Positions 18,460 through 36,144 are shown, numbered from the stretch's first letter. The stretch is DNA of 64,000 nucleotides from Anaerovoracaceae bacterium (GCA_963678385.1 OY782829.1:781397-845396), one strand, 5' to 3'. Notes: generated from the letters alone by a model not told the origin. Numbers and translations: made by a program.

Positions 18460-18479
18460 TGTTATGTAGTGACATAACA
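18460..18479. promoter_or_regulatory. Palindromic operator candidate between divergent genes
   Basis: tgttatgt-agtg-acataaca perfect 8-bp inverted repeat. Confidence 0.6.
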
Positions 18480-18553
18480 AATTATAACAGAACAAAGTTG
18501 AAATTACCAGCGAATTTTTTGATTCTTTGCTTATTTAAAAGGGGCAAGGAATC

Positions 18554-18582
18554 TTGACAGGGGGGAATAGGGAATGTATAAT
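18554..18582 (+). promoter_or_regulatory. Consensus sigma-A promoter of the glycerol dehydrogenase gene
   Basis: TTGACA-17 bp-TATAAT. Confidence 0.8.
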
Positions 18583-18643
18583 GTAGTAACAAAGTAACGA
18601 TACGAACAAAGAAGTTAATTATATATGTAAGGAGGCATATTTT

Positions 18644-19774: not shown

Positions 19775-19812
19775 ATCAGCTTTTTCATTTTTCTCACTCC
19801 ATTAAATGTTTT

Positions 19813-19859
19813 AAAAAAGAACTGCCATATTTCAATCATGAATATGGCAGTTCTTTTTT
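19813..19859. terminator. Bidirectional terminator
   Basis: aaaaaagaactgccatatt...aatatggcagttctttttt. Confidence 0.85.
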
Positions 19860-19882
19860 ATCCTAAACTATTTGTGGAGGAG

Positions 19883-20836: not shown

Positions 20837-20872
20837 ATATGTATGCTCCTTTTTAACATTCTATCCGGCGCT

Positions 20873-21502
20873 TTAGCGTACCAATTCAACAGCCTCGGCT
20901 GTCAAGCGTGCGATTTCCTTGAAATCGCCGGAGTTGATGAGCTTGTCTGAAGCCATCCAGCTGCCGCCGCAGGCAATGATTTTTTTGGAAGCGAGAAAAT
21001 CTAAAATATTGGATTGATTGATTCCACCTGTGGGCATAAACCGGACGGAGGGGAACGGCGCGGCCAGGGCGTTGATCGTGTCCAGGCCCCCGTATTGCTT
21101 CGCCGGGAAAAATTTCATGACAGGCAGATCATACTCAAGCGCCATCATAAGCTCCGTGGGCGTACAGATCCCCGGAAAAATCATCAGCTTATTTTTTAAA
21201 GCGTACTCGGTAACTTTACTGCTGAAACCGGGAGATACGATAAATTTGGCGCCTGCATCAACTGCTCTCTTTGCCTGCTCTTCATTTACTACAGTACCGG
21301 CGCCCACCAGCATATCGGGAAATTCCTTCGCTATGATGCGGATGGATTCCTCGGCAGCCTCGGTCCGAAACGTTATTTCCGCCACGGGCAGGCCGCCTGT
21401 GCAGAGCGCTTCGGCCAGCGGTTTGGCGTCTGCAGCTTTATCCAGTTTTACTACCGGTACGATTTTTTTTAATTCAACCTCTTTTAAAATATCATCAAAC
21501 AT
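20873..21502 (-). CDS. eda: KDPG/KHG aldolase
   Basis: EITFRT, GAGTV, FIVSPG, KFFPA Schiff-base Lys, FMPTGGI. Confidence 0.92.
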   Translation of the reverse strand: MFDDILKEVELKKIVPVVKLDKAADAKPLAEALCTGGLPVAEITFRTEAAEESIRIIAKEFPDMLVGAGTVVNEEQAKRAVDAGAKFIVSPGFSSKVTEYALKNKLMIFPGICTPTELMMALEYDLPVMKFFPAKQYGGLDTINALAAPFPSVRFMPTGGINQSNILDFLASKKIIACGGSWMASDKLINSGDFKEIARLTAEAVELVR

Positions 21503-21541
21503 AAATTAACCTCCTATCGGATCCGTGCGTTCAACTTCGTA

Positions 21542-22495: not shown

Positions 22496-22505
22496 GATCG
22501 CCTCC

Positions 22506-23087
22506 TTACCAGTTCGGGTTATCGGTAATGATCGGCTTCCCATCCTTTTCTAAAACAATTTTATGGAAACCCTTCAACTCGATGGTGCCGTAATCATGGC
22601 CGGCATCGGCAGCAAAGGTGAAAAACAGAACAAGGGGTTCGGTTCCTGTGTTGACGGTCCTGTGGGCATAGCGCCTTGGAACATATAATGCGGCACCCTT
22701 AGATAATGGCTCCACAAGCGATTCGCCTTCCGGGTTTTCCATAACCATATATCCTTCGCCGGAGAGGGTATAATACACCTCGGCGGTTTCTAAAACGGTA
22801 TGGAAATGGCCCTTTGTCATATAGTACTCGGATCCGACCTTCCCGGGATATATAATGGTGGTGCCGAATAAAAGGTCTCCGGCTCTTTCCGGACAGCCCA
22901 ACTCGTGAAATTCATATATGACAGGATCTTTGTCGACTAATATTCTCTTGGCTTCCGACCGATCCGCAAATACGTTTTTCATATTCGATAAATACCGCTT
23001 TGTCGTGACGGCAGCTTTCGATAATCCGTTTTCGAGGTCAAAATCCACAAGAAAGCTTTTATCCCAATTAAAGTTATTCATAATCAT
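22506..23087 (-). CDS. Cupin-type glucose-6-phosphate isomerase family protein
   Basis: GTTIIYPGKVG.EYYMTKGHFH, AEVY..LSGEG, YVP...AHRTVNTG. Confidence 0.88.
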   Translation of the reverse strand: MIMNNFNWDKSFLVDFDLENGLSKAAVTTKRYLSNMKNVFADRSEAKRILVDKDPVIYEFHELGCPERAGDLLFGTTIIYPGKVGSEYYMTKGHFHTVLETAEVYYTLSGEGYMVMENPEGESLVEPLSKGAALYVPRRYAHRTVNTGTEPLVLFFTFAADAGHDYGTIELKGFHKIVLEKDGKPIITDNPNW

Positions 23088-23097
23088 CCCTCTTTCC

Positions 23098-24033
23098 TTA
23101 TAATTTGGCGATCCGGCTCAAATTCTCCAATCGGTCACCTTTGATTTCAATATGGAATACTTCTGCGATAACCTGTGTCCAGCCATGGATGAAGTAGATC
23201 CATCCGTCTTCCACATGGAGGTTTTTCGCTGCAGCCTGTGATTCGGCCTGCCGCTTGAACAATAAGTCGCCGCGGTAATTGATCTCCCAAACCAGACTTT
23301 CCCGCGGAAATTCGCAGCCGTCGGTAAGAGGGGAACCCGGGGCGTCTTTGCCGAGGCCCGTAGCATTGACGATCAGAGAGTGAGGCTTTAATGACGCCAG
23401 CGTCCGGTCATTATCTTCAGGAGTTGGATTATGTACAAATTCAAATTTTATCTGAGGATGGATCCCGTCCAGGATCGCTTTTGCAGATTCCAGGCGGGGC
23501 AGGCTCCGATTGGCGATGATAATGCGTTTCGGAACGTTTGCACCGATCTTTTCCTGCGCGAAGTAAACCGACATCGCAAGAGTGCTTCCGCCGGCGCCCA
23601 GCAGCAGAACGTCGCCGCCGTGATCCTTCCAGTAATTTGCCGGCACAAAATTCGCCAGGGCTAAGCCGCTGGAGATGGGGTCCTTCGCATGCGCGCACAA
23701 TTTTCCGTCTTCTTTGGAGATGGAAGAAACTTCTCCCAGTCTTTCGGCATATGGATCAACGTAATCAAAGAGATCACGGCAGGTTTGAAATAAATCGATT
23801 TTATGTGTGGTGACAAGTGCTCCCAAAGAAAGGGGATCGTTTTTTATAAATTCCACAGCTTCACGGTATTCTTCGGCCGGGGAATGGGGCTTAAAATCGA
23901 TCCCTTTTATCACGGAATCTTTCAGCCCAAGAAAATCAGCCCATTTCGGGAAGACTTTCATAATGGAAGACTGGTCCGTTGTAACCCCAATGAAATAAAT
24001 TGTTGGAGCAGTTGCTTTTTCATAGTTGGCCAT
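23098..24033 (-). CDS. Shikimate dehydrogenase-like oxidoreductase of unknown substrate
   Basis: ALVTTHK, LLGAGG, IANRS, VNATGLG; divergent N-terminus FIGVTTDQSSIMKVFP. Confidence 0.72.
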   Translation of the reverse strand: MANYEKATAPTIYFIGVTTDQSSIMKVFPKWADFLGLKDSVIKGIDFKPHSPAEEYREAVEFIKNDPLSLGALVTTHKIDLFQTCRDLFDYVDPYAERLGEVSSISKEDGKLCAHAKDPISSGLALANFVPANYWKDHGGDVLLLGAGGSTLAMSVYFAQEKIGANVPKRIIIANRSLPRLESAKAILDGIHPQIKFEFVHNPTPEDNDRTLASLKPHSLIVNATGLGKDAPGSPLTDGCEFPRESLVWEINYRGDLLFKRQAESQAAAKNLHVEDGWIYFIHGWTQVIAEVFHIEIKGDRLENLSRIAKL

Positions 24034-24133
24034 TGTTGATTTCCTTTCTTAAGTTATTGTTAACAATGCTAGGTTGTAATGTTACAACGTATATAATGAA
24101 TAATTACTGCTCCTTGGAAGGGAGCAGTAAAAA

Positions 24134-25135
24134 CTATGCTTCGATATTCAGCAGGCTCATGGTAGCCGGAAGCTCATGGGCAGTGTTGACCTTATCGCTG
24201 CCGACTACACAGTCAAAACACGAAACCGCGATTTTGCCGTTCCAGACGCACGGCTCGCCGGGCTGATCCAATTCTCCGTTAAAACCGTCGGTATCGGGGC
24301 TTTGCGCAATACGTTTCACATGCCCGTCCCGGTCTACTCTGGCAACTGCGTTTACTACAAAATCAGCCACATAGATGTTACCGAATTCGTCGATGGTCAT
24401 GCCGTCCGTAGAACGCAAGTTTTGAGGATCCCTTGCAAATGACTTATTCTCCCTGATGCTGCCGTCTTCGTTGAAGGTGATCTTAAAGATCTCGCCGTCG
24501 CCGAAGTTTCCGACATACAGATTTCCCTCGTGGTCAAATACGATGCCGTCCATTCCGTATTGGTCATCCGGATTGTGGGTGAGCCATGTTTCAAATATGT
24601 TCTTATCGTCCAGTGTGTTCGTGATATGTATGTTTTCGTCGTCCAGATGAAAACGGTAGACACAGCTGAGTAATTTGCCGGATTCTGTTTTCACTTTCTC
24701 CATCGTGCTTTGTGTGACGTATATGTAGTCGCCTTTTATGCGGATGCCGTTGGGATGCTCCATTCCTTCGGCGATAACGGTAACCTTTTCGATCGTGTCC
24801 CCGTTCATTCTGACACGGAGGATACGGCCCTGGAACTTAAGACGTTCGTCTCCGGACCAGCCTTGATTATCGACTATGTAAAGATCCCAGTCAGGGCCGA
24901 AGGCAAGGCCCATGGCTCTGGCTTCCTTTGTTTTCTCATGTAATGGTACATCGAACCATTTTCTGACGTTGCCGTTGGTATCGATTTTGGCGATGCAGCT
25001 TGGCATGGACATATCTGCAAAGTTAGGACATGCAAGTATTAAATTTCCTTCCCGGTCGACTTCCATCCCATCCGGGGTGCAAATGAATTCCTTGGGCAGC
25101 AGTGCCAATAGTTTTGGTGTTTGCATACGAACCAT
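24134..25135 (-). CDS. SMP-30/gluconolactonase family beta-propeller
   Basis: TPDGM, PNGI, MDGIVFD..GNLYV, DGMTIDEFGNIYVA repeats. Confidence 0.85.
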   Translation of the reverse strand: MVRMQTPKLLALLPKEFICTPDGMEVDREGNLILACPNFADMSMPSCIAKIDTNGNVRKWFDVPLHEKTKEARAMGLAFGPDWDLYIVDNQGWSGDERLKFQGRILRVRMNGDTIEKVTVIAEGMEHPNGIRIKGDYIYVTQSTMEKVKTESGKLLSCVYRFHLDDENIHITNTLDDKNIFETWLTHNPDDQYGMDGIVFDHEGNLYVGNFGDGEIFKITFNEDGSIRENKSFARDPQNLRSTDGMTIDEFGNIYVADFVVNAVARVDRDGHVKRIAQSPDTDGFNGELDQPGEPCVWNGKIAVSCFDCVVGSDKVNTAHELPATMSLLNIEA

Positions 25136-25293
25136 CCTTTTTATTATGTTATGACATTACTATATTACAATACTACGATAAAAAGAATAACATATTATTT
25201 TATACTTGAAAAGCATAAATTTTAAAAAATTATTTACTTTTAAAATAAAACAGGGTTATCATGTAGGAAATATGTAGTATTTTGGAGGGGTAT

Positions 25294-26415
25294 ATGAACG
25301 CAGGCAGCAATAATATGGAGGTCAGGAAGGCCAATAAGAACAGGGCATTTCGTTACATCTGCCAGAAAGAAAGAGTATCGAAGCCTGAAATCGCAGCGGC
25401 GCTTGGCATTAGTGTACCCACCGTACTTCAGCTGGTAAACAAGCTGGAGGAGGACAATCTTGTATTTGAAGTGGGAGAGTGCGATTCAAAGGGCGGAAGA
25501 AAGGCGAAAGCAGTCGGACCAAACTGGGATGCCGCTTACGCCATCGGACTGGATATCACCAAAAACCATATCAGTCTGATCTATACCGACTTATCAAAGC
25601 AGGCGCTGGAGCACGTTCGAATCAACAAAGCCTTTGAAGACACGGAGGATTATTATAAAGAGGTCACCGATACTCTGAAAGACTTTATCCGGGATTATCA
25701 TATTCCGGAAGATAAAATAGTGGGCGTAGGGATATCGATACCGGGAATCGTCGACGGCGCCAACAATCGCATTGAGAGATCCCACGTCTTAAATCTATAC
25801 GACGTTCCCTGCGAACGGTTTGGAAAATATCTTCCTTATCCGACCATTCTGATCAACGACGCAAATGCCGCGGGAAGGACAGAAATAGACAGCGAAAGAA
25901 TCAAAAATAATATTGTCTATCTGTCGCTGAGCAATAGTGTTGGCGGCACCGTGATCATGGGGGATATATTCAGCGGAAACAACTGGCGGTCCGGCGAATT
26001 TGGACATATGGTCGTAGCCGGAGCCGAAGGGACCTGCTACTGCGGGAAAAAGGGGTGCTTTGACGTATGCTGTTCCGCGCTTCGCCTAGCCGACCTGGCT
26101 GACGGAAAGCTTGAAACATTTTTTGAGGGCCTGGAACAGCAGAACCCGGAATACAAGAAAGCATGGGACAAATATTTGTCATATCTTGCGACCATGGTGG
26201 AAAACCTCCACATGGCATTCGACTGCGATATCATTTTAGGGGGTTATGTCGGGAGCTTTATGGGACCATACATAAGGGAATTCCAGGCCAGGATCGCCAA
26301 AGACAATATCTTTGGAAACACAGGAACGTATGTAAAGTCGTGCAGATACCAATTTGAGGCGGCAGCATTGGGAGCCGCGCTTTTCTTTATTGAGAAATTC
26401 ATGAAGGAAATTTAG
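25294..26415 (+). CDS. ROK-family transcriptional repressor
   Basis: N-terminal HTH, GGRKA, IGLDI, INDANA, SGEFGHM, CYCGKKGC. Confidence 0.92.
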   Translation: MNAGSNNMEVRKANKNRAFRYICQKERVSKPEIAAALGISVPTVLQLVNKLEEDNLVFEVGECDSKGGRKAKAVGPNWDAAYAIGLDITKNHISLIYTDLSKQALEHVRINKAFEDTEDYYKEVTDTLKDFIRDYHIPEDKIVGVGISIPGIVDGANNRIERSHVLNLYDVPCERFGKYLPYPTILINDANAAGRTEIDSERIKNNIVYLSLSNSVGGTVIMGDIFSGNNWRSGEFGHMVVAGAEGTCYCGKKGCFDVCCSALRLADLADGKLETFFEGLEQQNPEYKKAWDKYLSYLATMVENLHMAFDCDIILGGYVGSFMGPYIREFQARIAKDNIFGNTGTYVKSCRYQFEAAALGAALFFIEKFMKEI

Positions 26416-26560
26416 TACAGCTGCCATTATCAAAAAACTGAAAATCGCTTTTTTGCCTCCTGCCGGGAATCGGCGGGAGGCTTCTCTTTTTTCGATCCAG
26501 TTCTGACAAATTTTACAATTAAAAAGTATTGACAAACAGAAAAAGAAGGATTAGCATAAT

Positions 26561-26593
26561 AATGACTTTGTTAAAGATATTAATAAAGTCATT
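26561..26593. promoter_or_regulatory. 33-bp palindromic operator candidate (ROK type)
   Basis: aatgactttgttaa-agata-ttaataaagtcatt just downstream of a TTGACA at 26529. Confidence 0.7.
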
Positions 26594-26619
26594 AACGAAG
26601 AAAGGAGGAAATGCGAATC

Positions 26620-27657
26620 ATGAAAGTAGCTGTTATGACTGGAATAGGGAAAATTGACTATATTGAAGCACCAATACCGGTCCCCAAGGATGATGAAGTT
26701 CTTGTCAAGCTGGAGTATGTGGGGATATGCGGCAGCGATCTGCATTATTATGAAAACGGCCGGATCGGCGATTACATAGTAGAACCGCCTTTTGTCCTGG
26801 GACATGAGCCGGGAGGAATCGTTACGGAAGTCGGCAAAAATGTTACCCATTTAAAGGTCGGGGATAAAGTTGCCCTGGAACCGGGAAAGACCTGCGGAAA
26901 GTGCCGCTTTTGCAGAGAAGGAAAGTATAATTTATGCCCGGACGTCATATTCTTTGCGACGCCGCCCGTAGACGGAGTTTTTCAGGAATATGTGGCCCAT
27001 GAAGCGGCTTTGTGCTTTAAACTGCCGGACAACGTGAGTACGCTGGAAGGCGCGCTGATCGAACCTTTGGCGGTAGGCTTTCACGCTGCAGGCCAGGGGG
27101 ATGCCCATGCCGGGCAGAAAGCGGTCGTATTCGGAGCCGGATGCATCGGACTAGTGACAATGATGGCGCTCAAAGCCAGAGGAGTTACAAATGTAGTCGT
27201 TGTAGATATCATGCAGAAGAGACTGGATAAAGCGCTGGAACTGGGCGCCACAGCGGTGATCAACTCAGCGGAGGAAGACGTGCTTGCGCGTTCAAAGGAA
27301 TTGACGGCGGGTGAAGGCTTCGATCTGGCAATTGAAACGGCAGGAACTGAAATAACGGCGGCTCAATGTATCCAGGTGGTGAGAAAGGGCTCCACGATCG
27401 TATTGGTAGGCTATGGAAAATCGGGAATGATGAATTTGCCTATGAGCCTGGCACTTGACAAAGAAGTAACGTTCAAGACCGTGTTCCGGTATCGTCATAT
27501 TTATCCGATGGCGATTGAAGCAGTCGCTTCGGGAAAGGTAAATTTGAAGGGGATCGTGACCCACCAGTTTGATTTTGAGCATGTTCAGGAAGCCATGGAT
27601 AACTGTGTCAAAGATAAATCGAATATCGTAAAAGCCGTAATCAAGTTCACAAAATGA
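26620..27657 (+). CDS. Sorbitol/xylitol-type polyol dehydrogenase (MDR)
   Basis: GICGSDLHYY, GHEPGG, CGKCRFC...YNLC, GALIEPLAVG, VFRY. Confidence 0.88.
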   Translation: MKVAVMTGIGKIDYIEAPIPVPKDDEVLVKLEYVGICGSDLHYYENGRIGDYIVEPPFVLGHEPGGIVTEVGKNVTHLKVGDKVALEPGKTCGKCRFCREGKYNLCPDVIFFATPPVDGVFQEYVAHEAALCFKLPDNVSTLEGALIEPLAVGFHAAGQGDAHAGQKAVVFGAGCIGLVTMMALKARGVTNVVVVDIMQKRLDKALELGATAVINSAEEDVLARSKELTAGEGFDLAIETAGTEITAAQCIQVVRKGSTIVLVGYGKSGMMNLPMSLALDKEVTFKTVFRYRHIYPMAIEAVASGKVNLKGIVTHQFDFEHVQEAMDNCVKDKSNIVKAVIKFTK

Positions 27658-27675
27658 AAGGGGAGACCATAAATC

Positions 27676-28698
27676 ATGAAAGCGATTGTTTACAATGCGC
27701 CAAGAGACTATGAATTAAAAGACATTCCAAAACCAGCGATCGCACCAAATCAGGTGCTGATCAAGGTCGCGGCCTGCGGAGTGTGCAGGACAGATATGCA
27801 CATCCACGAGGGCGACTTTATCTCTGAATTTCCGTTGACGCCGGGACATGAATTTACAGGCGAAATCGTCGAAATCGGTTCGGAGGTATATGGGTTTTCA
27901 CTGGGAGACCGCGTAGTTGGCGACAATACGGTTCTTTGTGGTGAATGCTACTTTTGCAGAAGAAATCAACCGTTATTTTGTGAAAACTTTTATTCTTTGG
28001 GATGCAACGGGCCTGGAGGATTTGCGGAATATGTAAAGGTAAACTTCGATAAAGTCTTTCATATCAGCGACAACTTATCCTATGATCAGGCGATCTTCGC
28101 AGAACCATTAGCGTGCGCGATCCATGGTATGGACGTGATCGCACCGAAATGCGGCGATGATGTACTGATTTTCGGAGCGGGGCCGACGGGCATTTTGCTG
28201 ACTCAGCTGTTAAAGCACGGCGGAGCGGCGAATGTTGTAGTCTGTGCGTCCTCCCAGGAGAAATTGGATCTGATCCAGAAAAACGGATACGCGGAAACCG
28301 TGTTGATGGACCGCAACGATTATTCGAAACATGCTAAAACATTAAAAGAAAAATATCCTCACGGCTTTGATATCGTGATCGATGCCACAGGAGCACCGAA
28401 GGTATTGGAACAATGCTTCGATTTTCCTAAGAAAACCGGAAAGATCATTATCTACGGCGTATGTGCCAGTGACGCGAAGATTTCCGTTAATCCGTATCAA
28501 ATTTTCAGCAATGAATTAAAGGTACTGGGATCCTTCGCACAGACTCATTGTTTTGACCGAGCTGTGAAATACCTCGAAAACGGAGTCATAAAAGTTGACG
28601 ATCTGGTAGCAAAGCATTTTACTTTGGAGGAATTCGGAGAAGCCATGGATACCATGGTGAACGGCAAGGGCCTTTTAAAGCTGATCGTTACTCCGTAA
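27676..28698 (+). CDS. Zn-dependent polyol/alcohol dehydrogenase (arabitol/mannitol-DH-like)
   Basis: CGVCRTD, GHEFTG, CGECYFC...PLFC, GAGPTG, GSFAQ. Confidence 0.85.
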   Translation: MKAIVYNAPRDYELKDIPKPAIAPNQVLIKVAACGVCRTDMHIHEGDFISEFPLTPGHEFTGEIVEIGSEVYGFSLGDRVVGDNTVLCGECYFCRRNQPLFCENFYSLGCNGPGGFAEYVKVNFDKVFHISDNLSYDQAIFAEPLACAIHGMDVIAPKCGDDVLIFGAGPTGILLTQLLKHGGAANVVVCASSQEKLDLIQKNGYAETVLMDRNDYSKHAKTLKEKYPHGFDIVIDATGAPKVLEQCFDFPKKTGKIIIYGVCASDAKISVNPYQIFSNELKVLGSFAQTHCFDRAVKYLENGVIKVDDLVAKHFTLEEFGEAMDTMVNGKGLLKLIVTP

Positions 28699-28797
28699 CT
28701 CTGAGCATTGTCCGACACGGTTCAACACACCAGAGCAGCGTCTAAATTGGCTGTTATACGTATTGTCACCTTAGCGTAAAAAAAATAGAATTTATTA

Positions 28798-28826
28798 TTG
28801 ACATGGGATAGGGCACGCATTATAAT
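28798..28826 (+). promoter_or_regulatory. Consensus sigma-A promoter of the ABC operon
   Basis: TTGACA-17 bp-TATAAT. Confidence 0.8.
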
Positions 28827-28935
28827 ATGACACATGCAAGATAATAATCTCGTAATGTAGGTACATAAGGACCAAGCGGATCGGCAAAGCATATTACGGA
28901 TTATAAATCGGCCCATCAAAAAAGGAGGAATTTTT

Positions 28936-30087
28936 ATGAAATTGAGGAGACTTACATCATTATTGCTCGCGGGAATGTTAGTAATCAGCACTTTGACTGC
29001 TTGCGGCTCGCAGCAAACGGAATCAACCGATACCGGTTCCGACACAGCTGTTGCATCAAATATTGATTACGCGAACTTCGTAATCGATCCAAGTAAGATT
29101 CCACAGGAAAAGCTCGACACAACTTTATACGTAGCTACATCAGTTCGTGGGCTTGAAAATCCTTACATAGTAACAATTACAGAAGGAATGGATGAATTCT
29201 GTAAGTATTTGGACAGCATTGGGCAGAAATATGAAAAGCAAGTATTGGATTCCGGCGGATCCAATGACGTCGAAATCGACAACATGAAACAGTTCGCCGC
29301 AAAAGCAAACGGTAATGCGATCGCTTACGCTGACCCGAATGAAGCGGCAATCGCTCCTTCCCTTGCTGAAGCAATGGCATCCTCGGGCGGATATATCGGA
29401 ACTGCCTGGAACAAGCCAGACGACGCTATGCCGCAGGACTATAATCCAAACTGGGTTATCCACACTTCGGCTGACAACGTAACAAACGGCAAAGCTACCG
29501 CAAAAGCGCTTTTCGATAAGATGGGCGGAAAAGGCAAGATATTTGTTATTGAAGGTATGCTCGGAAATACAGCTTCCATCGATAGAGTAAAAGGCTTAGA
29601 ACAGGCTTTAAAAGAATATCCGGATATCGTAGTAGCACATCAGGATACAGGCAACTGGGCTACGGATCAGGCGCTTACTTTAGTTGAAACTTGGCTGAAT
29701 GATACTCCTGACGTTGGCGGTATCTGGTGTGCAAACGACAATATGGCAACCGGCGCACTTCAGGCTCTTGATAAACAGGGACTGAAAGGTAAAGTCGGCG
29801 TAACCGGCATTGACGCGAACACCGACATCGTTCAGGAAGTCAAAGCTGGCAACGTAGTTGCAACGGTTTCTTCAAACGGTTACTTACAGTCAGGATATAC
29901 ATTGGCGATCTGCTATGCAGCATGGGCCGGATTGATCGATCCAGAACAGCTGCCGGATGATTACAGAGTGTTCTTAACACCTGCTGTAATGGTTACATCT
30001 GATAATGTTGATGATTATATCGCAAAATATGTTGACGCAACTCCGGAAATGGATTTCTCAAAGATTTTTGACTGCAAAATAAAGTAA
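28936..30087 (+). CDS. Sugar ABC transporter substrate-binding lipoprotein (RbsB-like fold)
   Basis: Lipobox LTAC, ENPY, RVKG, CANDNMATGA, VTGID. Confidence 0.9.
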   Translation: MKLRRLTSLLLAGMLVISTLTACGSQQTESTDTGSDTAVASNIDYANFVIDPSKIPQEKLDTTLYVATSVRGLENPYIVTITEGMDEFCKYLDSIGQKYEKQVLDSGGSNDVEIDNMKQFAAKANGNAIAYADPNEAAIAPSLAEAMASSGGYIGTAWNKPDDAMPQDYNPNWVIHTSADNVTNGKATAKALFDKMGGKGKIFVIEGMLGNTASIDRVKGLEQALKEYPDIVVAHQDTGNWATDQALTLVETWLNDTPDVGGIWCANDNMATGALQALDKQGLKGKVGVTGIDANTDIVQEVKAGNVVATVSSNGYLQSGYTLAICYAAWAGLIDPEQLPDDYRVFLTPAVMVTSDNVDDYIAKYVDATPEMDFSKIFDCKIK

Positions 30088-30108
30088 GATTAATAATCTG
30101 ATGATTCA

Positions 30109-30141
30109 AAGGAGGAGATTGACAAAGTCAGTCTCCTCCTT
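30109..30141 (+). terminator. Stem-loop after the SBP gene (attenuator or mRNA stabiliser)
   Basis: aaggaggagattgac-aaa-gtcagtctcctcctt. Confidence 0.6.
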
Positions 30142-30201
30142 ACATCGAAAACATGTTAAAATAGCAGGAAACGGACTTATTAATTGATTGGAGAAGATAG
30201 A

Positions 30202-31221
30202 ATGGGAAAAGAAAAGCTTGCAACGTTGTCCATTACAGAAGAGTTTGCTTCCAAGATTAAATCGGATAATCAAAAAGAGCGGCTTATGAAATGGGCCCCT
30301 GTCTTTGTTTTGGTTGCATTGTTTCTTGTATTTACTGTCATACTCGGAGGATCCTTTGCGAGCGGAAGCAATCTTGTATCGATACTGAATCAATGGGCGA
30401 TTCCGCTGCTGGTTGCGCTTGGGCTGACATTTGTAATCATGCTGGGCAGTATCGATTTGTCGATTGACGGTACAGTGGGGATGGCCGGATCACTGGCTGC
30501 GGTTTTTGTACTGAACAGCCGCAACGGAAACGATATGGGAGTATGGGGACTTATTCTCGCTGTGTTATGCAGTGTTGTGATTGGATTTATTATTGGAACG
30601 ATTCACGTTAAATTAAAAATACCTTCATTCATGGTCAGCTTTGCTTTCATGAATATTTGTGCAGGGATAGGATTACTTTCTTACGGTGGTAAGCCGCCGA
30701 CAATCAAAGACGAATTCATTGCCTCAATTGCAAAGTCAAGTTTTCTTGGAATTCCAATTATAACATGGGTTGCACTTTTGGTTTTTTTAATATGCCTTTA
30801 CATACAGGAGTACACACCTTTTGGCCGTCACATCTATGCGGTGGGTACGGATGAAATGATTCCAAAGGCTGTCGGCATCAACGTAAACAGCGTAAAGATC
30901 AAGGTATTTACTTTGGCGGGCTTCTGCTTCGGAGTAGCCGGCGTTTTAGGAGCGATCCGGTTAGGCCAGGGGCAGGTTTCCATCGGAGACGGTTTGATGT
31001 TCCCCGCCAACGCGGCGGTTGTTATCGGAGGAACTGCTTTGACGGGCGGCAAAGGCGGAGTAGTGAATACCGTAGTTGGTACTTTGATCATGACAGTGCT
31101 GTTTAACGGATTGACGATGATGGGGGTAAATCCTTACATCAAAACCGGAGTCCAGGGCCTGATCATTTTAATAGCGGTGGCGTTGACGGTAAAACACGAA
31201 GCCACGGTTATCAGCAAATAG
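30202..31221 (+). CDS. Sugar ABC permease
   Basis: GSIDLS, TPFGRHIYAVG, AAVVIGGTALTGGKG. Confidence 0.92.
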   Translation: MGKEKLATLSITEEFASKIKSDNQKERLMKWAPVFVLVALFLVFTVILGGSFASGSNLVSILNQWAIPLLVALGLTFVIMLGSIDLSIDGTVGMAGSLAAVFVLNSRNGNDMGVWGLILAVLCSVVIGFIIGTIHVKLKIPSFMVSFAFMNICAGIGLLSYGGKPPTIKDEFIASIAKSSFLGIPIITWVALLVFLICLYIQEYTPFGRHIYAVGTDEMIPKAVGINVNSVKIKVFTLAGFCFGVAGVLGAIRLGQGQVSIGDGLMFPANAAVVIGGTALTGGKGGVVNTVVGTLIMTVLFNGLTMMGVNPYIKTGVQGLIILIAVALTVKHEATVISK

Positions 31222-31237
31222 TGCCGGAGGGATAGAA

Positions 31238-32773
31238 ATGGAAGAGAAAAAATTACTTTTTAGCGCGAAAAACATTACTAAGTCCTTTCATGGCACCCAG
31301 GCACTTAAAGGTGTCGATTTAGATGTCTACGAGGGAGAGGTAATCGGACTGATCGGCGAGAACGGAGCCGGAAAATCCACCTTGCTGAAAATCATTATCG
31401 GCGTTCAGCCGCCTACATCCGGCGAGATGTTCATGTACGGAAAAAAGTTTGAACCGAAGACGCCACTGGAAGCCAATGCGGCGGGAGTCGGAATGGTTTA
31501 TCAGGAACAATCTCTGATTACAAACCTGTCGGTGGGACAAAATATTTTCTTCGGTCATGAAAAGGATTTCGTAAAGCTCGGCTTTGTCAATTGGAGCAAA
31601 ATGTACGCGGAAGCGCAAAAGGTGCTTGAAGCCGTAAACAGCGGGCATATCAATCCGCGAAAAAAGGTCATCGATCTGAATTTTGCCACAAGGCAGATGA
31701 TCGAAATCGCCAAGGTTGTAAATGTTACAAAATCGGCGAATCCAAGCGGAAAATGCCTGATCCTTTTAGATGAGCCTACTTCCGTATTGAGTGAAGCAGA
31801 AGTAAAAGGATTGTTTACAGAAATAAGAAAATTGAAAGCCCAGGGGCATTCCGTCGTATTTGTTTCCCATAGACTGGATGAAGTCCTGGAAATCTCAGAC
31901 CGAGTGTATGTATACAAAGACGGTTCCAATGCCGGAAATATGCCGATCGAAGAAGCATCGGAAACAAAGATGTATGAAATGATGGTCGGCCATGAAACCA
32001 CTTCGGAGTATTATAAGCTCGACAAGCAGATCACTCCCGGTGAAGAAGTAGTACTGGAAGCAAAGGATTTGGGTCTGTGGGGACGGTTCAAGCACTGCGA
32101 TTTCAAGCTTCATAAAGGCGAGATCCTTGGATTTTGCGGCGTTGTCGGCTCAGGAAAAGAAGAGATATGCTCTGTGCTTTGCGGAGATGAAAAACCTACA
32201 TATGGAGAAGTGATCGTTAAAGGAAAACCCGTTCATTATTCAGAACCGTCAAAGGCATTAAAAGACGGAACCCTTTTGATCCCAAAAGAAAGAATGTATG
32301 AGGGCATCGTAAGGTGCTTACCCGTTGAAGACAATATGGCAATGTCCAATACGAGACAATTGAAAAACAAAAGAGGGCTTGTCTCTAAAAGAGCCATATC
32401 GGATCAAGCGCAGAAATATATCAAGCTTTTGAATATCAAGACCAGAGGAAAAGACGAATTGTTGATTCAATTGTCCGGAGGCAATCAGCAGAAAGTCGTA
32501 TTCGCAAGAGCTCTTGCTTCTCAGGCGGATATCCTGATATTGAATCACCCGACCCGCGGAGTTGACGTAGGCGCAAAAGAAGAAATCTACAGCCTGATCC
32601 GCGATATGGTTGCGGAAGGTAAGTCGGTCATCCTGCTTGGAGATACGTTGGACGAATGCATCAGCATGAGTAACCGTGTCTTGGTTATGAAGGACGGTCT
32701 GATAACCGGAGAATTTAATGCGGCTGCTGATTCGAAACCGAGTCAGGTTCAAATCGTTAGTATGATGGTATAG
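31238..32773 (+). CDS. Sugar ABC ATPase (two NBDs)
   Basis: GENGAGKST, LLDEPTS, LSGGNQQKV, PTRGVDVGAK. Confidence 0.95.
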   Translation: MEEKKLLFSAKNITKSFHGTQALKGVDLDVYEGEVIGLIGENGAGKSTLLKIIIGVQPPTSGEMFMYGKKFEPKTPLEANAAGVGMVYQEQSLITNLSVGQNIFFGHEKDFVKLGFVNWSKMYAEAQKVLEAVNSGHINPRKKVIDLNFATRQMIEIAKVVNVTKSANPSGKCLILLDEPTSVLSEAEVKGLFTEIRKLKAQGHSVVFVSHRLDEVLEISDRVYVYKDGSNAGNMPIEEASETKMYEMMVGHETTSEYYKLDKQITPGEEVVLEAKDLGLWGRFKHCDFKLHKGEILGFCGVVGSGKEEICSVLCGDEKPTYGEVIVKGKPVHYSEPSKALKDGTLLIPKERMYEGIVRCLPVEDNMAMSNTRQLKNKRGLVSKRAISDQAQKYIKLLNIKTRGKDELLIQLSGGNQQKVVFARALASQADILILNHPTRGVDVGAKEEIYSLIRDMVAEGKSVILLGDTLDECISMSNRVLVMKDGLITGEFNAAADSKPSQVQIVSMMV

Positions 32774-32785
32774 GCGGGTGAAAAA

Positions 32786-33763
32786 ATGATAAAAATTAAC
32801 AAAGATAATTTTGCTATATATTTCAGTATCTCGATAATTGTAATACTTACCATTGTCTTTTCAACGATGGAAAGCAGTTTTATCGGTTATGCCAATCTAA
32901 GCAACCTGTTGAGCGATACGGCGCCGCTGATGATCATGGCAGCCGGCATGACGCCGATCCTGCTCCTCGGATCCATTGATTTATCCGTCGGTTCCATGTG
33001 TTCTGTTGCAAACGTAATGGCTTTAAGCATTGTGATGCTATTCAAAGGTACGGCGGTACCCTTTGGCGTTATTATGATTGTGGCGTTTGGCACAACGATC
33101 CTATTTTCAGTGGCTGCAGGCATGATGCTGGGTATTATTCATGTCAAATTAAAAATACCTTCCTTCATAGCTTCACTGGCGTTTCTGTCCATTTGGAGCT
33201 CAGTGGCTTTACTGATATCCAATGCTCCGGTTTCCATACCGAAAGTATTATGGCCGACGATCGACTGGTATAAGCTGTCCCTGGGACCCCTTGGATTACC
33301 GTTGATCATAGCCCTTGCTCTCATATTTGCTTATTACATTATGCTGACCAGAACTTCATTCGGCAAGGGGGTCTATGCAATCGGAGGAAATGAAAGAGCA
33401 GCCCGTGTCGCGGGTATTTCAGTCGACAGAATCAAGATCGCAGTATTTGCAATCAATGGATTCTGTGCGGCGTCAGGCGCTATTTTACTGATGGCGAAAG
33501 CGAAAAGCTCGGCTCCAACAGTCGGAGAATCGTTTACCCTGATGGTTATTTCCGCAGTCGTACTCGGCGGAACCTCGTTGGTTGGCGGCAAGGGCAGTAT
33601 TTTAGGCACTATATTGGGCGTATTCACGGTTGCTATCATCAAAAATGGTATGAATATCGTGGGCGTCGATGTATTCTGGCAGAAGATCGTTTTCGGCGCT
33701 ATCATTCTGATCGCCATCGCGATCAATACGGACCGTTCGTCAAGAAGCTTTGTCGTTAAGTAG
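32786..33763 (+). CDS. Sugar ABC permease
   Basis: GSIDLSVG, FGKGVYAIGGNE.AA, SAVVLGGTSLVGGKG. Confidence 0.92.
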   Translation: MIKINKDNFAIYFSISIIVILTIVFSTMESSFIGYANLSNLLSDTAPLMIMAAGMTPILLLGSIDLSVGSMCSVANVMALSIVMLFKGTAVPFGVIMIVAFGTTILFSVAAGMMLGIIHVKLKIPSFIASLAFLSIWSSVALLISNAPVSIPKVLWPTIDWYKLSLGPLGLPLIIALALIFAYYIMLTRTSFGKGVYAIGGNERAARVAGISVDRIKIAVFAINGFCAASGAILLMAKAKSSAPTVGESFTLMVISAVVLGGTSLVGGKGSILGTILGVFTVAIIKNGMNIVGVDVFWQKIVFGAIILIAIAINTDRSSRSFVVK

Positions 33764-33774
33764 AGGAGAAAACC

Positions 33775-34164
33775 ATGATAAAGAATCGGAAGCATTCTCA
33801 TATTGGTCTTGGAACGAAAGACGTAGAAGCCGCGGCAAAATGGTATATGGATGTTCTGGGATTCGAGCTGATCGGCGATTTTAAGGCGCCCGACGGCAAT
33901 CCGATCAAATTTCTGAAGAACAGGGATGTTGTTTATGAGATGTATCAGGACAGCTCCATTTCTCCGGCGGCTTCCGGAAAAATCGATCATTACTCCTTTG
34001 AATCACAGGATATTGAAACGGATTATGATTATTGTGTGAAGCAGGGATATCAGATCACGACCAAAGGCATCGAGGGGATCCCCACACTGTGGGAGCATGG
34101 CGTCAGGTACTTTAAAATCGCCAGTCCGACGGGAGAAGATCTCGAGTTTTGTCAGATATTATAG
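33775..34164 (+). CDS. VOC/glyoxalase family protein
   Basis: HIGL....VEAAAKWYMDVLGF, IDHYSF, GEDLEF. Confidence 0.85.
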   Translation: MIKNRKHSHIGLGTKDVEAAAKWYMDVLGFELIGDFKAPDGNPIKFLKNRDVVYEMYQDSSISPAASGKIDHYSFESQDIETDYDYCVKQGYQITTKGIEGIPTLWEHGVRYFKIASPTGEDLEFCQIL

Positions 34165-34218
34165 ATGAGTTGCATACGGGGGAATAATCCCCCGTATCAT
34201 ATTATGGGAGGAGAGAAT

Positions 34219-35037
34219 ATGGATTACATAACACTTAATAATGACTTGAAAATGCCGAAGCTGGGATTCGGCGTATTCCAGACCCCCGACGGAAAGCAGA
34301 CGGAAGACGCCGTTAAATGGGCGTTGGAAGCAGGGTACAGACATATTGATACTGCAATGATCTACGGAAATGAAAGCAGCGTCGGAAAAGCCATGGAAGA
34401 AAGCGGAGTGCCGAGAAAAGACGTCTTTTTAACCACCAAGTTATGGAATGAAGATATCCGCAGAGGCAACACGATGCAAGCCTTTGAAGACAGTCTGAAT
34501 AAACTGCGGACGGATTATCTGGACCTGTATCTCATTCACTGGCCGGCGGACGGATTTGAAAAGGCGTGGACCGAAATGGAAAAGATCTACGCTTCCGGAA
34601 GGGCAAAAGCCATTGGCGTATCAAATTTCCAGCCCCGCCATCTGGAAGCGCTGGAGAAAATCTCTTCCCTTCGCCCGGCTGTGAATCAAATTGAATCCAA
34701 CCCTTATTTCAACAATCAGGCTGTGATCGATTACAGCAGGGAAAGAGGGATTTCCGTTACCGTATGGAGCCCCCTGGGAGGAACAGGCGGAAACATTCTT
34801 GAGGACGCGGTCCTGTCGGAACTTTCCGCAAAATATAAGAAATCTGCGGCGCAGATCGTGATCCGGTGGCATTTGCAGCGTGACGTCGTTGTGATTCCAA
34901 AATCCCTGCATCAGAATCGGATCATATCAAATTTCGATGTATTTGATTTTGAACTCAGCAAAGCCGATATGGATCGCATCAGCGGCCTGAACCGGAACAT
35001 AAGATCCGGAGCAGATCCTGATACCTTTGACTTTTAG
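34219..35037 (+). CDS. Aldo/keto reductase (2,5-DKG reductase-like)
   Basis: GYRHIDTA.IY.NE, FLTTKLWN, LYLIHWP, IGVSNF, NQIE, VIPKS. Confidence 0.92.
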   Translation: MDYITLNNDLKMPKLGFGVFQTPDGKQTEDAVKWALEAGYRHIDTAMIYGNESSVGKAMEESGVPRKDVFLTTKLWNEDIRRGNTMQAFEDSLNKLRTDYLDLYLIHWPADGFEKAWTEMEKIYASGRAKAIGVSNFQPRHLEALEKISSLRPAVNQIESNPYFNNQAVIDYSRERGISVTVWSPLGGTGGNILEDAVLSELSAKYKKSAAQIVIRWHLQRDVVVIPKSLHQNRIISNFDVFDFELSKADMDRISGLNRNIRSGADPDTFDF

Positions 35038-35052
35038 AGGCTGGGGTCGGAT

Positions 35053-35916
35053 ATGAAATACGGGATATATTATGCATATTGGGAGCAGGAGTGGGATTCC
35101 GAAGGATTTACAAAATATGTGAACAAGGTTGCAAACCTTGGATTTGACGTGCTGGAAATCAACGGAACGCCGCTTCCGGAGTATACAAAAAGCGATATCA
35201 GGGAACTGAAAGCCTGTGCCGACTCGGCGGGCATCGAGATCACAACCGGATACGGTCCGATTTATGAACACGATATGGGATCAAAAGACCCCGGGACCCG
35301 CAAATCGGCCCTCGAGTGGTATAAGAGGCTGTTTGACGTAATGGAACAGCTGGACAGCCGTTTGCTCGGAGGAGCCATTTATTCCCACTGGCCCATCGAT
35401 TACAGCAAAGGCGTCAATAAAGAGGAAGACTGGAAAAGAAGCGTGGAAGGAATGCGGATCCTGGGTCCCGTGGCAAAAGAGCACGGCATTACTTTGGGAA
35501 TGGAGATCCTGAATCGCTTTGAAAACCACATTCTCAACACGGCGGAAGAAGGCGTCCGTTTTGTGAAGGAAGCCGGGCAGGATAATGTGAAAGTCATGCT
35601 GGATACGTTCCATATGAATATCGAAGAAGACAGCATGAGGGACGCCATCCTGACCGCCGGCCCGTATCTGGGACATTTCCATGTGGGCGAATGCAATAGG
35701 AAGCTGCCCGGAAACGGACGCATTCCATGGAAAGAAATCATGGGAGCGCTCCGGGAAGTAAATTATCAGGGCTGCGTAACCATGGAGCCCTTTGTAAGAA
35801 TGGGCGGCCGCGTTGGTGAGGACATTAAAGTCTGGCGCGATCTCTCCGGCAATGCAACGGAAGCCGAGCTGGATGAAGCCGCCGGAAAATCGCTGAGATA
35901 TCTGAAAAACTTATAA
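35053..35916 (+). CDS. dpe: D-allulose (psicose)/D-tagatose 3-epimerase family
   Basis: MKYGIYYAYWEQEW N-terminus; metal/catalytic motifs EILNRFE, LDTFH, HFHVGECNR, MEPF, IKVWRD. Confidence 0.88.
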   Translation: MKYGIYYAYWEQEWDSEGFTKYVNKVANLGFDVLEINGTPLPEYTKSDIRELKACADSAGIEITTGYGPIYEHDMGSKDPGTRKSALEWYKRLFDVMEQLDSRLLGGAIYSHWPIDYSKGVNKEEDWKRSVEGMRILGPVAKEHGITLGMEILNRFENHILNTAEEGVRFVKEAGQDNVKVMLDTFHMNIEEDSMRDAILTAGPYLGHFHVGECNRKLPGNGRIPWKEIMGALREVNYQGCVTMEPFVRMGGRVGEDIKVWRDLSGNATEAELDEAAGKSLRYLKNL

Positions 35917-35930
35917 CTTTATAACCCTGA

Positions 35931-35959
35931 AAAATGAGAGGCTTTGCCTCTCATTTTTT
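35931..35959 (+). terminator. Terminator of the ABC-epimerase operon
   Basis: aaaatgagagg-cttt-gcctctcatttttt. Confidence 0.85.
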
Positions 35960-36144
35960 ATTTTCGTTCCGATATAGCAATAATCTCATTATTTTCCTGA
36001 ATATGCATTTCTTTTTCCACATCGCTTTGGTAATTAAATGTACTATTGCATCGTTTTTTTTTCAAATCCTCCATGTTAAGATTATGTATAATCAAACCAA
36101 ACCACAACCTAATGCGAAAGAATTTAGTTATAAGGTGACATAAA

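Follow-up and report, generated by a model that had tools for sequence, protein, structure and literature searches.

A predicted D-psicose 3-epimerase gene within a conserved two-operator carbohydrate island of an Anaerovoracaceae bacterium

The gene block and its transcription

The window, i.e. the whole 64,000-nt stretch of DNA analysed here, carries ten predicted ORFs on the plus strand between positions 25294 and 35916. All ten were found in an ORF check, which confirms that the cluster is real, and their products were assigned to families by Pfam and NCBIfam profile searches. The ROK-polyol dehydrogenase-ABC-epimerase cluster described in an earlier note on this DNA thus exists.

The first gene (25294..26415) encodes a ROK-family transcriptional regulator with an N-terminal winged HTH and a ROK domain (Pfam ROK, 2e-31; HTH_24). 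Its earliest in-frame start is a TTG at 25282, and the ATG at 25294 is preceded by GGAGG. ADH1 (26611..27657) is an MDR dehydrogenase of the sorbitol/xylitol dehydrogenase type. Its best PDB matches are 5vm2 (7e-100), which we take to be E. coli YdjJ, the ketose reductase 1e3j (7e-94) and human SDH 1pl6 (2e-87); 3m6i (4e-59) and 7y9p (4e-55) follow, and xylitol and L-arabinitol dehydrogenases are among the matches. The protein falls below every equivalog cut-off in the NCBIfam search, and its closest characterised relatives, polyol 2-dehydrogenases/ketose reductases, place it in the sorbitol/xylitol dehydrogenase branch of the MDRs. ADH2 (27676..28698) is a Zn-dependent MDR dehydrogenase (Pfam ADH_N, ADH_zinc_N) whose top PDB match is 4ej6 (8e-60). 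Of the two polyol dehydrogenases proposed earlier, ADH1 can be kept as sorbitol-type while ADH2 is assignable to the MDRs only.

The next four genes encode a CUT2 ABC importer: a lipoprotein substrate-binding protein (SBP, 28936..30087; PF13407, 8e-40; lipobox LTAC), permease A (30184-31221), a double ABC ATPase (31238-32773, ABC_tran twice) and permease B (32786-33763). The assignment follows from the combination, within a single operon, of a PF13407 protein bearing a lipoprotein signal, a pair of BPD_transp_2 permeases and a fused double ATPase. The permease/ATPase set is RbsC/RbsA-like, yet stays under the equivalog cut-offs. Likewise, the SBP reaches none of the NCBIfam equivalog cut-offs of the named binders RbsB, AlsB, XylF, YtfQ and MglB, the top scores being those for AlsB (84 bits, cut-off 335) and RbsB (76 bits, cut-off 337). 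In a structural model (pLDDT 86) its top match is 2rjo, ahead of binders of ribose, xylose, allose and polyols, and its C-terminal half resembles the Mycobacterium smegmatis CUT2 binders 4rs3, 4rsm and 5hko (1e-29). Neither the sequence nor the model allows the ligand to be deduced.

The block closes with a VOC (glyoxalase-fold) protein (33775..34164; PF00903, 8e-12), an AKR5-type NADPH carbonyl/aldose reductase of the DkgA/YvgN kind (34165..35037; PF00248, 3e-53) and a D-psicose (D-allulose)/ketose 3-epimerase (DPE, 35053..35916). A sigma-70 promoter with 12/12 hexamer matches and a 17-nt spacer (28798..28826, plus strand), invariant across four related genomes, precedes the SBP gene. Intergenic gaps are 96 bp after the SBP gene and 0-16 bp from permease A onwards, and strong terminators occur only 3′ of the ROK gene (26455-26481) and 3′ of the epimerase gene (35928..35960, plus strand; a stem of 15 pairs and then a run of T). 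Because of the short gaps, the promoter and the terminator positions, we infer a single transcript from SBP to DPE, in agreement with the earlier proposal that the epimerase is co-transcribed with the ABC importer, the VOC protein and the AKR.

The divergent operon, two operators and the 21-kb island

The region 5′ of the ROK gene contains ten further genes assigned by family searches. On the minus strand lie an FGGY kinase (14909-16525), a GntR/UTRA regulator (16452-17207), MDR3 (17372-18403), a 2-hydroxyacid dehydrogenase (HADH, 19883-20836), Eda (20873-21502), a PTE-family phospho-lactonase (21542-22543), a cupin PGI (22506-23087), a 311-aa protein with weak resemblance to shikimate DH (23098-24033) and a beta-propeller SGL protein (24134-25135). 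A GldA-like Fe-ADH (FeADH, 18644-19774) is encoded on the plus strand. The kinase scores 394 bits against the XylB model (cut-off 380) and has E. coli XylB as its top PDB match (4e-64).

Two putative operators were detected. Operator A, with the consensus TATGTAGnnACATA, is represented by AATGTAGGTACATA at 28854..28867, in the importer operon leader, and by two sites in the divergent MDR3/FeADH promoter region (18463-18476 and 18580-18593, within 18463..18593), the second of them immediately adjacent to the FeADH promoter's -10. The pattern ATGTAGNNACA has 4 matches in the window against 0.23 expected, a number reached in none of 100 shuffles. A scan of dereplicated loci totalling 358 kb yielded 16 operator A matches (0.68 expected), of which 15 lie upstream of homologues of island genes at a distance of no more than 500 bp; upstream of SBP orthologues the motif is found in 7 of 27 lineages (0.02 expected). 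In the present genome it lies ahead of MDR3, FeADH and the importer operon; in other lineages it stands upstream of the orthologues of these and of those of SGL, HADH and the GntR gene. The SGL/ROK intergenic region has just one degenerate operator-A-like site. The genes under operator A are probably controlled by the GntR/UTRA regulator of the island.

Operator B (26560..26594) is a 35-bp near-perfect palindrome, its two 15-bp arms separated by 5 bp, and immediately follows the -10 element of the promoter of ADH1 (26529-26557). It occurs once in the window and is conserved in relatives. Searching 2.28 Mb with a relaxed motif gave 8 matches, every one at a promoter of ADH1, ROK or VOC-DPE, in three lineages; the operator lies in front of ADH1 in the present genome, of VOC-DPE in Blautia and of ROK-ADH1-...-DPE operons in Lachnospiraceae. 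In both of these groups, ADH1 and DPE occur together with a ROK orthologue (45-56% identity). An HTH plus ROK domain and a putative palindromic, AT-rich operator at a target promoter are the features of ROK-family repressors of the XylR/NagC/Mlc type, and the regulator is a probable repressor acting at operator B.

Related contigs and genomes of the same genus keep this gene order, with proteins about 82-96% identical, so the arrangement is not a chance juxtaposition. Two same-genus genomes, G002 and G007, have the whole island (14909-35916) in collinear form, and a Blautia MAG (G435, 50-84% identity) has nearly all of it. Importer orthologues (60-74% identity) form 30 lineages, of which the 17 represented by 9 kb or more of sequence were counted. 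These carry MDR3 (13), SGL (11), HADH (7), cupin PGI (7) and FeADH (6), followed by FGGY kinase, PTE, DPE, ADH2 (54-75% identity) and AKR with 5 each; in one lineage (L098) the island orthologues form a single operon. ADH1 orthologues (75-81%) adjoin DPE in about ten Lachnospiraceae loci. Taken together, the importer, the divergent operon and the epimerase cluster are best described as one conserved ~21-kb, two-regulator island, kinase included, with a predicted role in sugar/polyol breakdown.

The epimerase and its surroundings

Against the D-psicose 3-epimerase equivalog NF051856 the epimerase scores 434 bits (cut-off 300), and its closest PDB entries are 3vni (9e-109) and 2hk0 (8e-99). In a HMMER alignment with 3vnk/3vni, residues E150, E156, D183, H186, H209, R215 and E244 (C. 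cellulolyticum numbering) are all identical, and Y6, W14, G65, A107, W112 and F246 are likewise kept. Presumably, E150, D183, H209 and E244 provide the metal ligands and the catalytic pair, E156, H186 and R215 bind O1-O3, and the others line a hydrophobic pocket. H209 and E244 are named in PMC7758420. The C3 ketose epimerase of the earlier note is thereby upheld: the enzyme is predicted to be a genuine free-ketose (D-psicose/D-allulose) 3-epimerase. The epimerases of four importer loci (L014, L100, L141, L150) all lie above the equivalog cut-off.

The epimerase matches IolO (127 bits) and a YcjR-type 3-keto-glucoside 4-epimerase (6wn6, 2e-24) more weakly. These matches bear on a reading centred on dicarbonyls, in which the AKR, the VOC protein and the shikimate-DH-like protein would reduce or detoxify a diketo-sugar (e.g. 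5-keto-D-fructose or a glucosone-type compound) arising from the many dehydrogenases of the island. The epimerase would then correct the resulting ketose, for instance in an L-sorbose/5-ketofructose/D-fructose network, or act on a non-hexulose keto compound as IolO/YcjR-type relatives do. Known 5-ketofructose reductases are either AKRs, with 2,5-DKG reductases and the glyoxal reductase of B. subtilis as their closest relatives, or shikimate-DH-like proteins (PMC7954740). The AKR of the cluster is indeed nearest to YvgN (2e-83) and DkgA (2,5-DKG reductase, 2e-67; 282 bits against the DkgA model, cut-off 425), and the VOC protein has the glyoxalase fold, its atlas matches being VOC clusters only. 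However, the epimerase favours the psicose epimerase model over IolO by 434 to 127 bits. The shikimate-DH-like protein of C. pasteurianum showed no activity on 5-ketofructose, and this compound was left undegraded by all 15 representative human-gut species that were assayed (PMC7954740). Furthermore, VOC and AKR are dispensable in relatives: VOC is missing from G002, and AKR in Blautia, where a VOC orthologue (70%) lies immediately 5′ of DPE. We consider dicarbonyl handling quite improbable.

Epimerase gene contexts were compared over 37 lineages. The commonest neighbours are MDR/SDR dehydrogenases (MDR in 19 lineages, any dehydrogenase in 22), FGGY kinases (16), CUT2 importers (15) and ketose-phosphate aldolases (ketose-bisphosphate aldolase or GatZ in 5); ROK regulators are found in 9. 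Such dehydrogenase, CUT2, kinase and aldolase neighbours fit a ketose/polyol role.

The kinases also bear on the original idea of a self-contained, phosphorylation-free Izumoring system of ten genes, which would import rare hexoses or hexitols and interconvert allitol, D-allulose, tagatose, sorbose and fructose. A D-psicose 3-epimerase, a sorbitol-type dehydrogenase, an AKR and an importer do share one terminator-bounded strand block. Against this, importer orthologues travel with genes of the neighbouring operon and not with ROK, ADH1 or DPE; MDR3 and FeADH share operator A with the importer operon; the island, FGGY kinase included, keeps its gene order in different genera, and such kinases adjoin the epimerase in the 16 lineages above; and without a kinase the products would be barred from metabolism. 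This reading seems very doubtful. The claim of a route without phosphorylation finds no support, as orthology and operator A tie the importer to the FGGY kinase, cupin PGI, phospho-lactonase and Eda, and the supposedly intact context is half of a larger island. A hexose substrate, rather than a pentose or another compound, is not established.

A candidate route and its relatives

Our preferred interpretation, with a probability of roughly 0.55, is that the cluster forms the importer-plus-feeder half of a ~21-kb carbohydrate catabolic island built of two co-regulated modules. Operator A would govern the first, made up of the CUT2 importer together with MDR3, the GldA-like dehydrogenase, the FGGY kinase and the SGL-to-HADH operon; operator B would govern the second, in which ROK and ADH1 (with ADH2) are joined by the ketose 3-epimerase (with VOC). 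Since the two operators split the island, the ROK/ADH1/epimerase module is best seen as an insert in an importer/kinase island, and VOC, AKR and epimerase would be transcribed with the importer because they are placed 3′ of its genes in the present genome.

In this scheme, the lipoprotein SBP would capture an unphosphorylated polyol or ketose, which the ABC system brings in. NAD(P)-dependent MDRs would then oxidise the polyol(s) to 2-ketose(s), while the AKR may interconvert aldose/keto forms and polyols. The epimerase would invert C3 of the free ketose, e.g. D-psicose to D-fructose or D-ribulose to D-xylulose, and the XylB-like FGGY kinase would phosphorylate the product, feeding it into central metabolism or into the phospho-sugar reactions encoded by the divergent operon. 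The PTE lactonase, cupin PGI, Eda, beta-propeller, shikimate-DH-like and VOC proteins have no place in so simple a scheme. Judging by their absence from G002 (VOC) or Blautia (AKR and FeADH), two or three of the island genes are dispensable. No fructokinase was assigned in the island, and a XylB-like kinase suits pentuloses better than hexuloses.

A substrate-specific form of this interpretation is a pentitol/pentulose funnel. Its starting compounds would be xylitol, ribitol or arabitol, or else the corresponding pentoses by way of the AKR. After uptake, ADH1, ADH2 and MDR3 would give D-/L-pentuloses, the epimerase would interconvert ribulose and xylulose, and the kinase would yield xylulose 5-phosphate. 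The kinase passes the XylB equivalog, though barely, and ADH1 matches xylitol and L-arabinitol dehydrogenases (4e-55 and 4e-59). The C-terminal half of the SBP resembles the M. smegmatis binders, which we take to have been solved with polyols, and the combination of an AKR, two MDRs and a xylulokinase parallels the established fungal oxidoreductive pentose route. In contrast, every hexulose-contacting residue of the C. cellulolyticum epimerase is kept, cupin PGI, PTE and Eda are superfluous for pentitols, and tagatose-type aldolase/GatZ and rhamnulokinase-like genes at other epimerase loci point to hexuloses. We regard the pentitol form as rather unlikely.

Characterised DPEases belong to the same NF051856 family (C. 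cellulolyticum 3VNI, A. tumefaciens 2HK0 and Dorea sp. CAG:317; 1e-99 to 1e-109), the Dorea locus showing 66% identity to the present epimerase, and they share all its metal, catalytic and substrate-pocket residues. They are known as biocatalysts only. The Ruminiclostridium-type context contains a CUT1 ABC system, a two-component system, an FAD oxidoreductase and an SDR, whereas the present gene is the last of a CUT2 importer operon in a 21-kb two-regulon island. The M. smegmatis CUT2 systems (4RSM, 4RS3, 5HKO; presumably threitol/erythritol/xylitol binders) combine a CUT2 SBP with the same dehydrogenase/kinase/isomerase logic for unphosphorylated polyols, but lack a ketose 3-epimerase of this family; their binders show partial, low similarity to the SBP (27% in structural alignment). 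In the ycjQRS and ydj clusters of E. coli, orphan or recently solved redox-epimerisation sugar clusters, MDRs are likewise accompanied by an epimerase of the xylose isomerase fold, as well as by an AKR, a kinase and an importer of the ABC or MFS type. These clusters differ in their substrates (glycosides, higher-order sugar acids) and are related by distant orthology only. Similarly, Thermotoga maritima IolM/IolN/IolO combines MDR dehydrogenases with a TIM-barrel epimerase. ADH1 and ADH2 match IolM (213 and 186 bits, cut-off 450) and the epimerase matches IolO (127 bits, cut-off 300), all far too weakly for equivalogs, and an IolN-type hydrolase is missing here; a Thermotoga-type inositol branch was rejected. 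The AlsE route for D-allulose in gut bacteria (PMC12216980) and the route proposed here would both lead from the psicose to the fructose configuration. AlsE, an allulose-6-phosphate 3-epimerase of the ribulose-phosphate epimerase fold, acts after phosphorylation, whereas the present enzyme is predicted to act on the free ketose before the kinase. The survey in PMC12216980 covers AlsE homologues only.

The natural role of these epimerases is, as the earlier note held, poorly established: a literature search found no paper on it or on the present gene context. That the SBP ligand would disclose this role is a weaker expectation, as only 5 of the 17 importer lineages (at least 9 kb each, some loci incomplete) show the epimerase. 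It is absent from the compared DNA of the other 12, and the imported compound therefore need not be the epimerase substrate. The SBP ligand would reveal the substrate of the larger island, not necessarily that of the epimerase itself. The island nevertheless offers a concrete route to learning the natural job of epimerases that are used in industry.

Genes of the ROK-to-epimerase block

All ten plus-strand open reading frames listed in the earlier note between 25294 and 35916 were found, and their families were assigned with Pfam and NCBIfam. The block opens with a ROK protein carrying an N-terminal winged HTH (25294-26415), followed by two medium-chain Zn-dehydrogenases, ADH1 (26611-27657) and ADH2 (27676-28698). 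A CUT2-type ABC importer comes next and comprises an SBP with the lipoprotein signal LTAC (28936-30087), two permeases (PermA, 30184-31221, and PermB, 32786-33763) and a double ATPase (31238-32773). A VOC protein of 129 residues (33775-34164), an AKR (34165-35037) and a xylose-isomerase-fold protein, hereafter the epimerase (35053-35916), complete the block.

The epimerase scores 434 bits on the NCBI D-psicose 3-epimerase equivalog model (cut-off 300) and its E-values against the C. cellulolyticum and A. tumefaciens enzymes are ~1e-109 and ~1e-99, respectively. All metal ligands and all catalytic and substrate-pocket residues of the C. cellulolyticum enzyme are identical in the alignment, and the protein is a member of this well-known enzyme family. 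Of 40 relatives, just three hold an epimerase above the cut-off, all of them other genomes of the genus. Two more xylose-isomerase-fold paralogues are encoded in the same genome (G000:C1:1021647-1022315 and 138174-138857), both far under the cut-off at 125 and 40 bits. A quick tree tentatively places the window's epimerase within a Lachnospiraceae-dominated clade. Relatives of the SBP are found in Anoxybacterium hadale (88%) and in Faecalicatena, Blautia and other Lachnospiraceae (63-75%).

Both dehydrogenases had been described as polyol dehydrogenases. This holds for ADH1, which belongs to the sorbitol/xylitol dehydrogenase branch (1e3j, a ketose reductase, 7e-94; human SDH, 2e-87; L-arabinitol and xylitol dehydrogenases, about 1e-55 to 1e-59), and is not sustained for ADH2, for which a PDB search returned no informative characterised relative. 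The nearest relatives of the AKR are B. subtilis YvgN and 2,5-diketogluconate reductases. For the VOC protein, family and fold searches gave the fold and no assignment beyond it. The SBP ligand could not be inferred from a PDB sequence search, an AlphaFold model (pLDDT 86) or Foldseek, in which 2rjo came first and generic binders of ribose, xylose, allose and polyols followed, at 19-34% identity. The importer itself is a CUT2 system of the ordinary kind, with no assigned specificity.

Conserved neighbourhoods and the extent of the island

Loci surrounding relatives of the epimerase (80, from genomes) and of the SBP (80, from metagenomes) were fetched, and every window protein between 14909 and 37860 was mapped onto them. 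A class-wide sample of 398 other genomes contained no SBP orthologue at 1e-80 and so gave no information on its context; the SBP loci came from the metagenome scan. The SBP orthologues (60-74% identity) form 30 lineages at 90% identity, 17 of them with 9 kb of sequence or more. Some of these loci are incomplete and the counts that follow are lower bounds.

In the 17 lineages, the SBP orthologues are mostly adjoined by orthologues of the divergently transcribed genes next to the window's block. MDR3 (17372-18403) occurs in 13/17 and the beta-propeller SGL (24134-25135) in 11/17, followed by the 2-hydroxyacid dehydrogenase (HADH) and the cupin PGI (7/17 each), the GldA-like Fe-ADH (6/17), and the FGGY kinase and the PTE lactonase (5/17 each). 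The epimerase, ADH2 and the AKR are each present in 5/17, the VOC protein in 3/17, ADH1 in 2/17 and ROK in 1/17. By family, the window's neighbours of the block comprise the FGGY kinase, which narrowly passes the XylB model (394 bits vs 380), and a GntR/UTRA regulator. MDR3 is an MDR, the Fe-ADH a member of the glycerol-dehydrogenase family, HADH a PGDH/glyoxylate-reductase-like dehydrogenase, the PTE a phospho-furanose-lactonase-like protein and SGL a beta-propeller; the cupin PGI, Eda and a 311-aa protein with weak likeness to shikimate-DH complete the set.

One fetched locus (L098) is a single operon of SGL, 311-aa protein, cupin PGI, PTE, HADH, SBP, permease, ATPase, permease and MDR3. The full 21-kb order is collinear in two genomes of the same genus, G007 and G002, the latter without a VOC gene between PermB and the AKR (L175). 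A Blautia MAG (G435; L180 and L014) repeats the island order at 50-84% identity: HADH-Eda-PTE-cupin PGI-311aa-SGL lie on one strand, and next come, in turn, ROK-ADH1-ADH2-SBP-PermA-ATPase-PermB-MDR3, kinase-GntR and VOC-epimerase. The Blautia island contains neither the AKR nor the GldA-like Fe-ADH. Since the VOC gene is absent in G002 and the other two in Blautia, the VOC, AKR and GldA-like genes are accessory. The operons at 14909-25135 and the block at 25294-35916 are one unit, and joining them alters the reading of both clusters. The same island is present in abundant human-gut Firmicutes.

Epimerase contexts at large were surveyed within 8 kb in 37 lineages (85% identity clusters with at least 5 kb of flank). 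An MDR dehydrogenase is found near the epimerase in 19/37 lineages, any dehydrogenase in 22/37, an FGGY kinase in 16/37, a CUT2 ATPase in 15/37, ROK in 9/37, an AKR in 6/37 and a class II ketose-bisphosphate aldolase or GatZ in 5/37. Individual loci carry kinases of the rhamnulokinase-like and XylB-like types as well as tagatose-type aldolase subunits. The recurring logic of these loci is import, dehydrogenase, epimerase and kinase, sometimes with an aldolase, and it is not the phosphorylation-free interconversion that the earlier note had proposed. Every epimerase from the importer loci scores above the equivalog cut-off; one of them belongs to a 63%-GC human-gut species (41 contigs), and its protein cluster has 822 members.

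In Dorea/Lachnospiraceae loci (L024-L036), the ADH1-epimerase pair adjoins a pyruvate-formate-lyase-like glycyl-radical enzyme in some cases and, in others, rhamnulokinase-like and XylB-like kinases with a class II ketose-bisphosphate aldolase. Unlike the window's island, the C. cellulolyticum-type contexts (Ruminiclostridium-type, L064-L088) comprise a CUT1-like ABC system and a sensor kinase together with a regulator of the AraC type; a PF12831 FAD oxidoreductase lies immediately 5′ of the epimerase, and an SDR lies downstream. This context hints at a different natural substrate, possibly an oxidised glycoside.

Transcription units and two predicted operators

A strong terminator lies 3′ of ROK (26455-26481), and ADH1-ADH2 have their own promoter (TTGACA-17-TAGCAT, 26529-26557). 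The SBP promoter is a perfect 12/12 match (28798-28826), the intergenic gaps from PermA through the epimerase measure 0-16 bp, and the operon closes with a 15-pair terminator after the epimerase (35928-35960). From these positions and gaps, the predicted co-transcription of the epimerase with the importer, VOC and AKR genes, already claimed in the earlier note, is well founded. Just 3′ of the SBP stop, a GC-rich 10-bp stem-loop without a T run lies inside the operon (30109-30141); such an element is typical of differential expression of SBP over permease or of mRNA stabilisation.

Operator A has the consensus TATGTAGnnACATA. Its pattern ATGTAGNNACA matches four times in the window, compared with 0.23 expected (0/100 shuffles reach four), and all four sites are intergenic. 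One lies in the importer-operon leader (28855), and two in the divergent MDR3/Fe-ADH promoters (18464 and 18581), where the 18581 site abuts the -10. The fourth (14124-14134) precedes by ~120 bp a gene for an NADPH-dependent FMN-reductase-like protein (14253-14813); this gene lies just beyond the left edge of the island and may likewise belong to the regulon. Dereplicated SBP loci totalling 358 kb contain 16 matches to ATGTAGNNACAT (0.68 expected), and 15/16 sites lie at most 500 bp upstream of SBP, MDR3, Fe-ADH, SGL, HADH or GntR-gene homologues. The loci with matches span 40% to 63% GC. The shared operator implies that the neighbouring genes and the importer operon are regulated together. 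An earlier candidate, ATGTAGGWA, lacked significance, and ATGTAGNNACA took its place.

Canonical operator A is absent from the SGL/ROK intergenic region in this genus and present before the SGL orthologues of two fetched loci (L160, L167). In the SGL-operon leader (25147-25161), TATGTTATGACATTA does not vary among three genomes and resembles a degenerate operator A (TATGT-N4-ACAT).

The importer-operon leader of ~100 nt could form a long imperfect hairpin (28835-28910; arms TAATCTCGTAATGTA ... TATTACGGATTA). In four related genomes the arms surround a stretch of variable length and sequence, and in Blautia an analogous long-range pairing surrounds the same ATGTAGGTAC core. This hairpin could stabilise the mRNA or act as a regulatory RNA that overlaps operator A. 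We make no RNA claim, since no compensatory changes were seen in four close sequences; an Rfam search of 14000-37000 returned no known RNA.

Operator B is a 35-bp palindrome directly downstream of the ADH1 promoter -10 (26560-26594), which occurs once in the window and is conserved in relatives. A relaxed pattern yields eight sites in the 2.28 Mb fetched, 8/8 at the promoters of one module: the ADH1 promoters of the genus and of Blautia, the Blautia VOC-epimerase promoter, and ROK-ADH1-SDR-ABC′-epimerase operons of two Lachnospiraceae, where the importer is a different one. This distribution implies that elsewhere ADH1 and the epimerase are regulated as a pair. In this genome, the epimerase, VOC and AKR genes have moved behind the importer. 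From co-occurrence and operator style, we infer that GntR would act at operator A and ROK at operator B.

A candidate route for rare ketoses and polyols

In the proposed scheme, the lipoprotein SBP and its ABC system would take up an unphosphorylated polyol or ketose, and the MDR dehydrogenases would deliver a 2-ketose. The epimerase would invert this ketose at C3, the FGGY kinase would phosphorylate the epimerised product, and the phosphorylated product would pass to the enzymes of the divergent operon or to central metabolism. This scheme leaves PTE, cupin PGI, Eda, the beta-propeller and VOC without a role. Elsewhere, the genome, a single contig of 3.7 Mb, encodes nine PfkB kinases, ten FGGY kinases and two IlvD/Edd-family proteins, which could provide in trans any steps that the island lacks.

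Several substrates are candidates. Allitol or D-allulose would lead to fructose. Pentitols would lead to ribulose or xylulose, a candidate that fits the XylB-like kinase and the xylitol/arabinitol dehydrogenase relatives of ADH1. Tagatose or sorbose are further candidates, and 5-ketofructose might be another; 5-ketofructose reductases of AKR and shikimate-DH-like types are known (PMC7954740).

The island may be a natural AlsE-independent route of gut Firmicutes for D-allulose and/or its polyol allitol, or for another rare ketose, by ABC import, free-sugar C3 epimerisation and phosphorylation. We give this reading roughly one chance in four. Its hosts would include the source genus, Blautia and the very common 63%-GC human-gut species. 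D-allulose is made industrially with ketose 3-epimerases and eaten in gram amounts, a share of which is thought to reach the colon.

A literature search on psicose/ketose 3-epimerases (natural role, operon, gut) returned no study of physiological role or gene context, and a review is silent on this role (PMC11803239). Only AlsE is considered in PMC12216980, and the AlsE route is the sole gut D-allulose pathway found in the literature searched. The same literature yielded no description of the island, of its two operators or of a free-ketose epimerase coupled to an importer/kinase regulon.

If the AlsE-independent reading is true, the industrial D-psicose 3-epimerases would gain a physiological role, and AlsE-only surveys would undercount the capacity of the microbiome to use D-allulose, a sweetener. 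What was a gene list is now a testable system with a defined importer, two conserved operators and two candidate regulators, a linked kinase, and a dehydrogenase-epimerase pair co-regulated in three lineages. Through this island, the natural role of ketose 3-epimerases becomes experimentally approachable.
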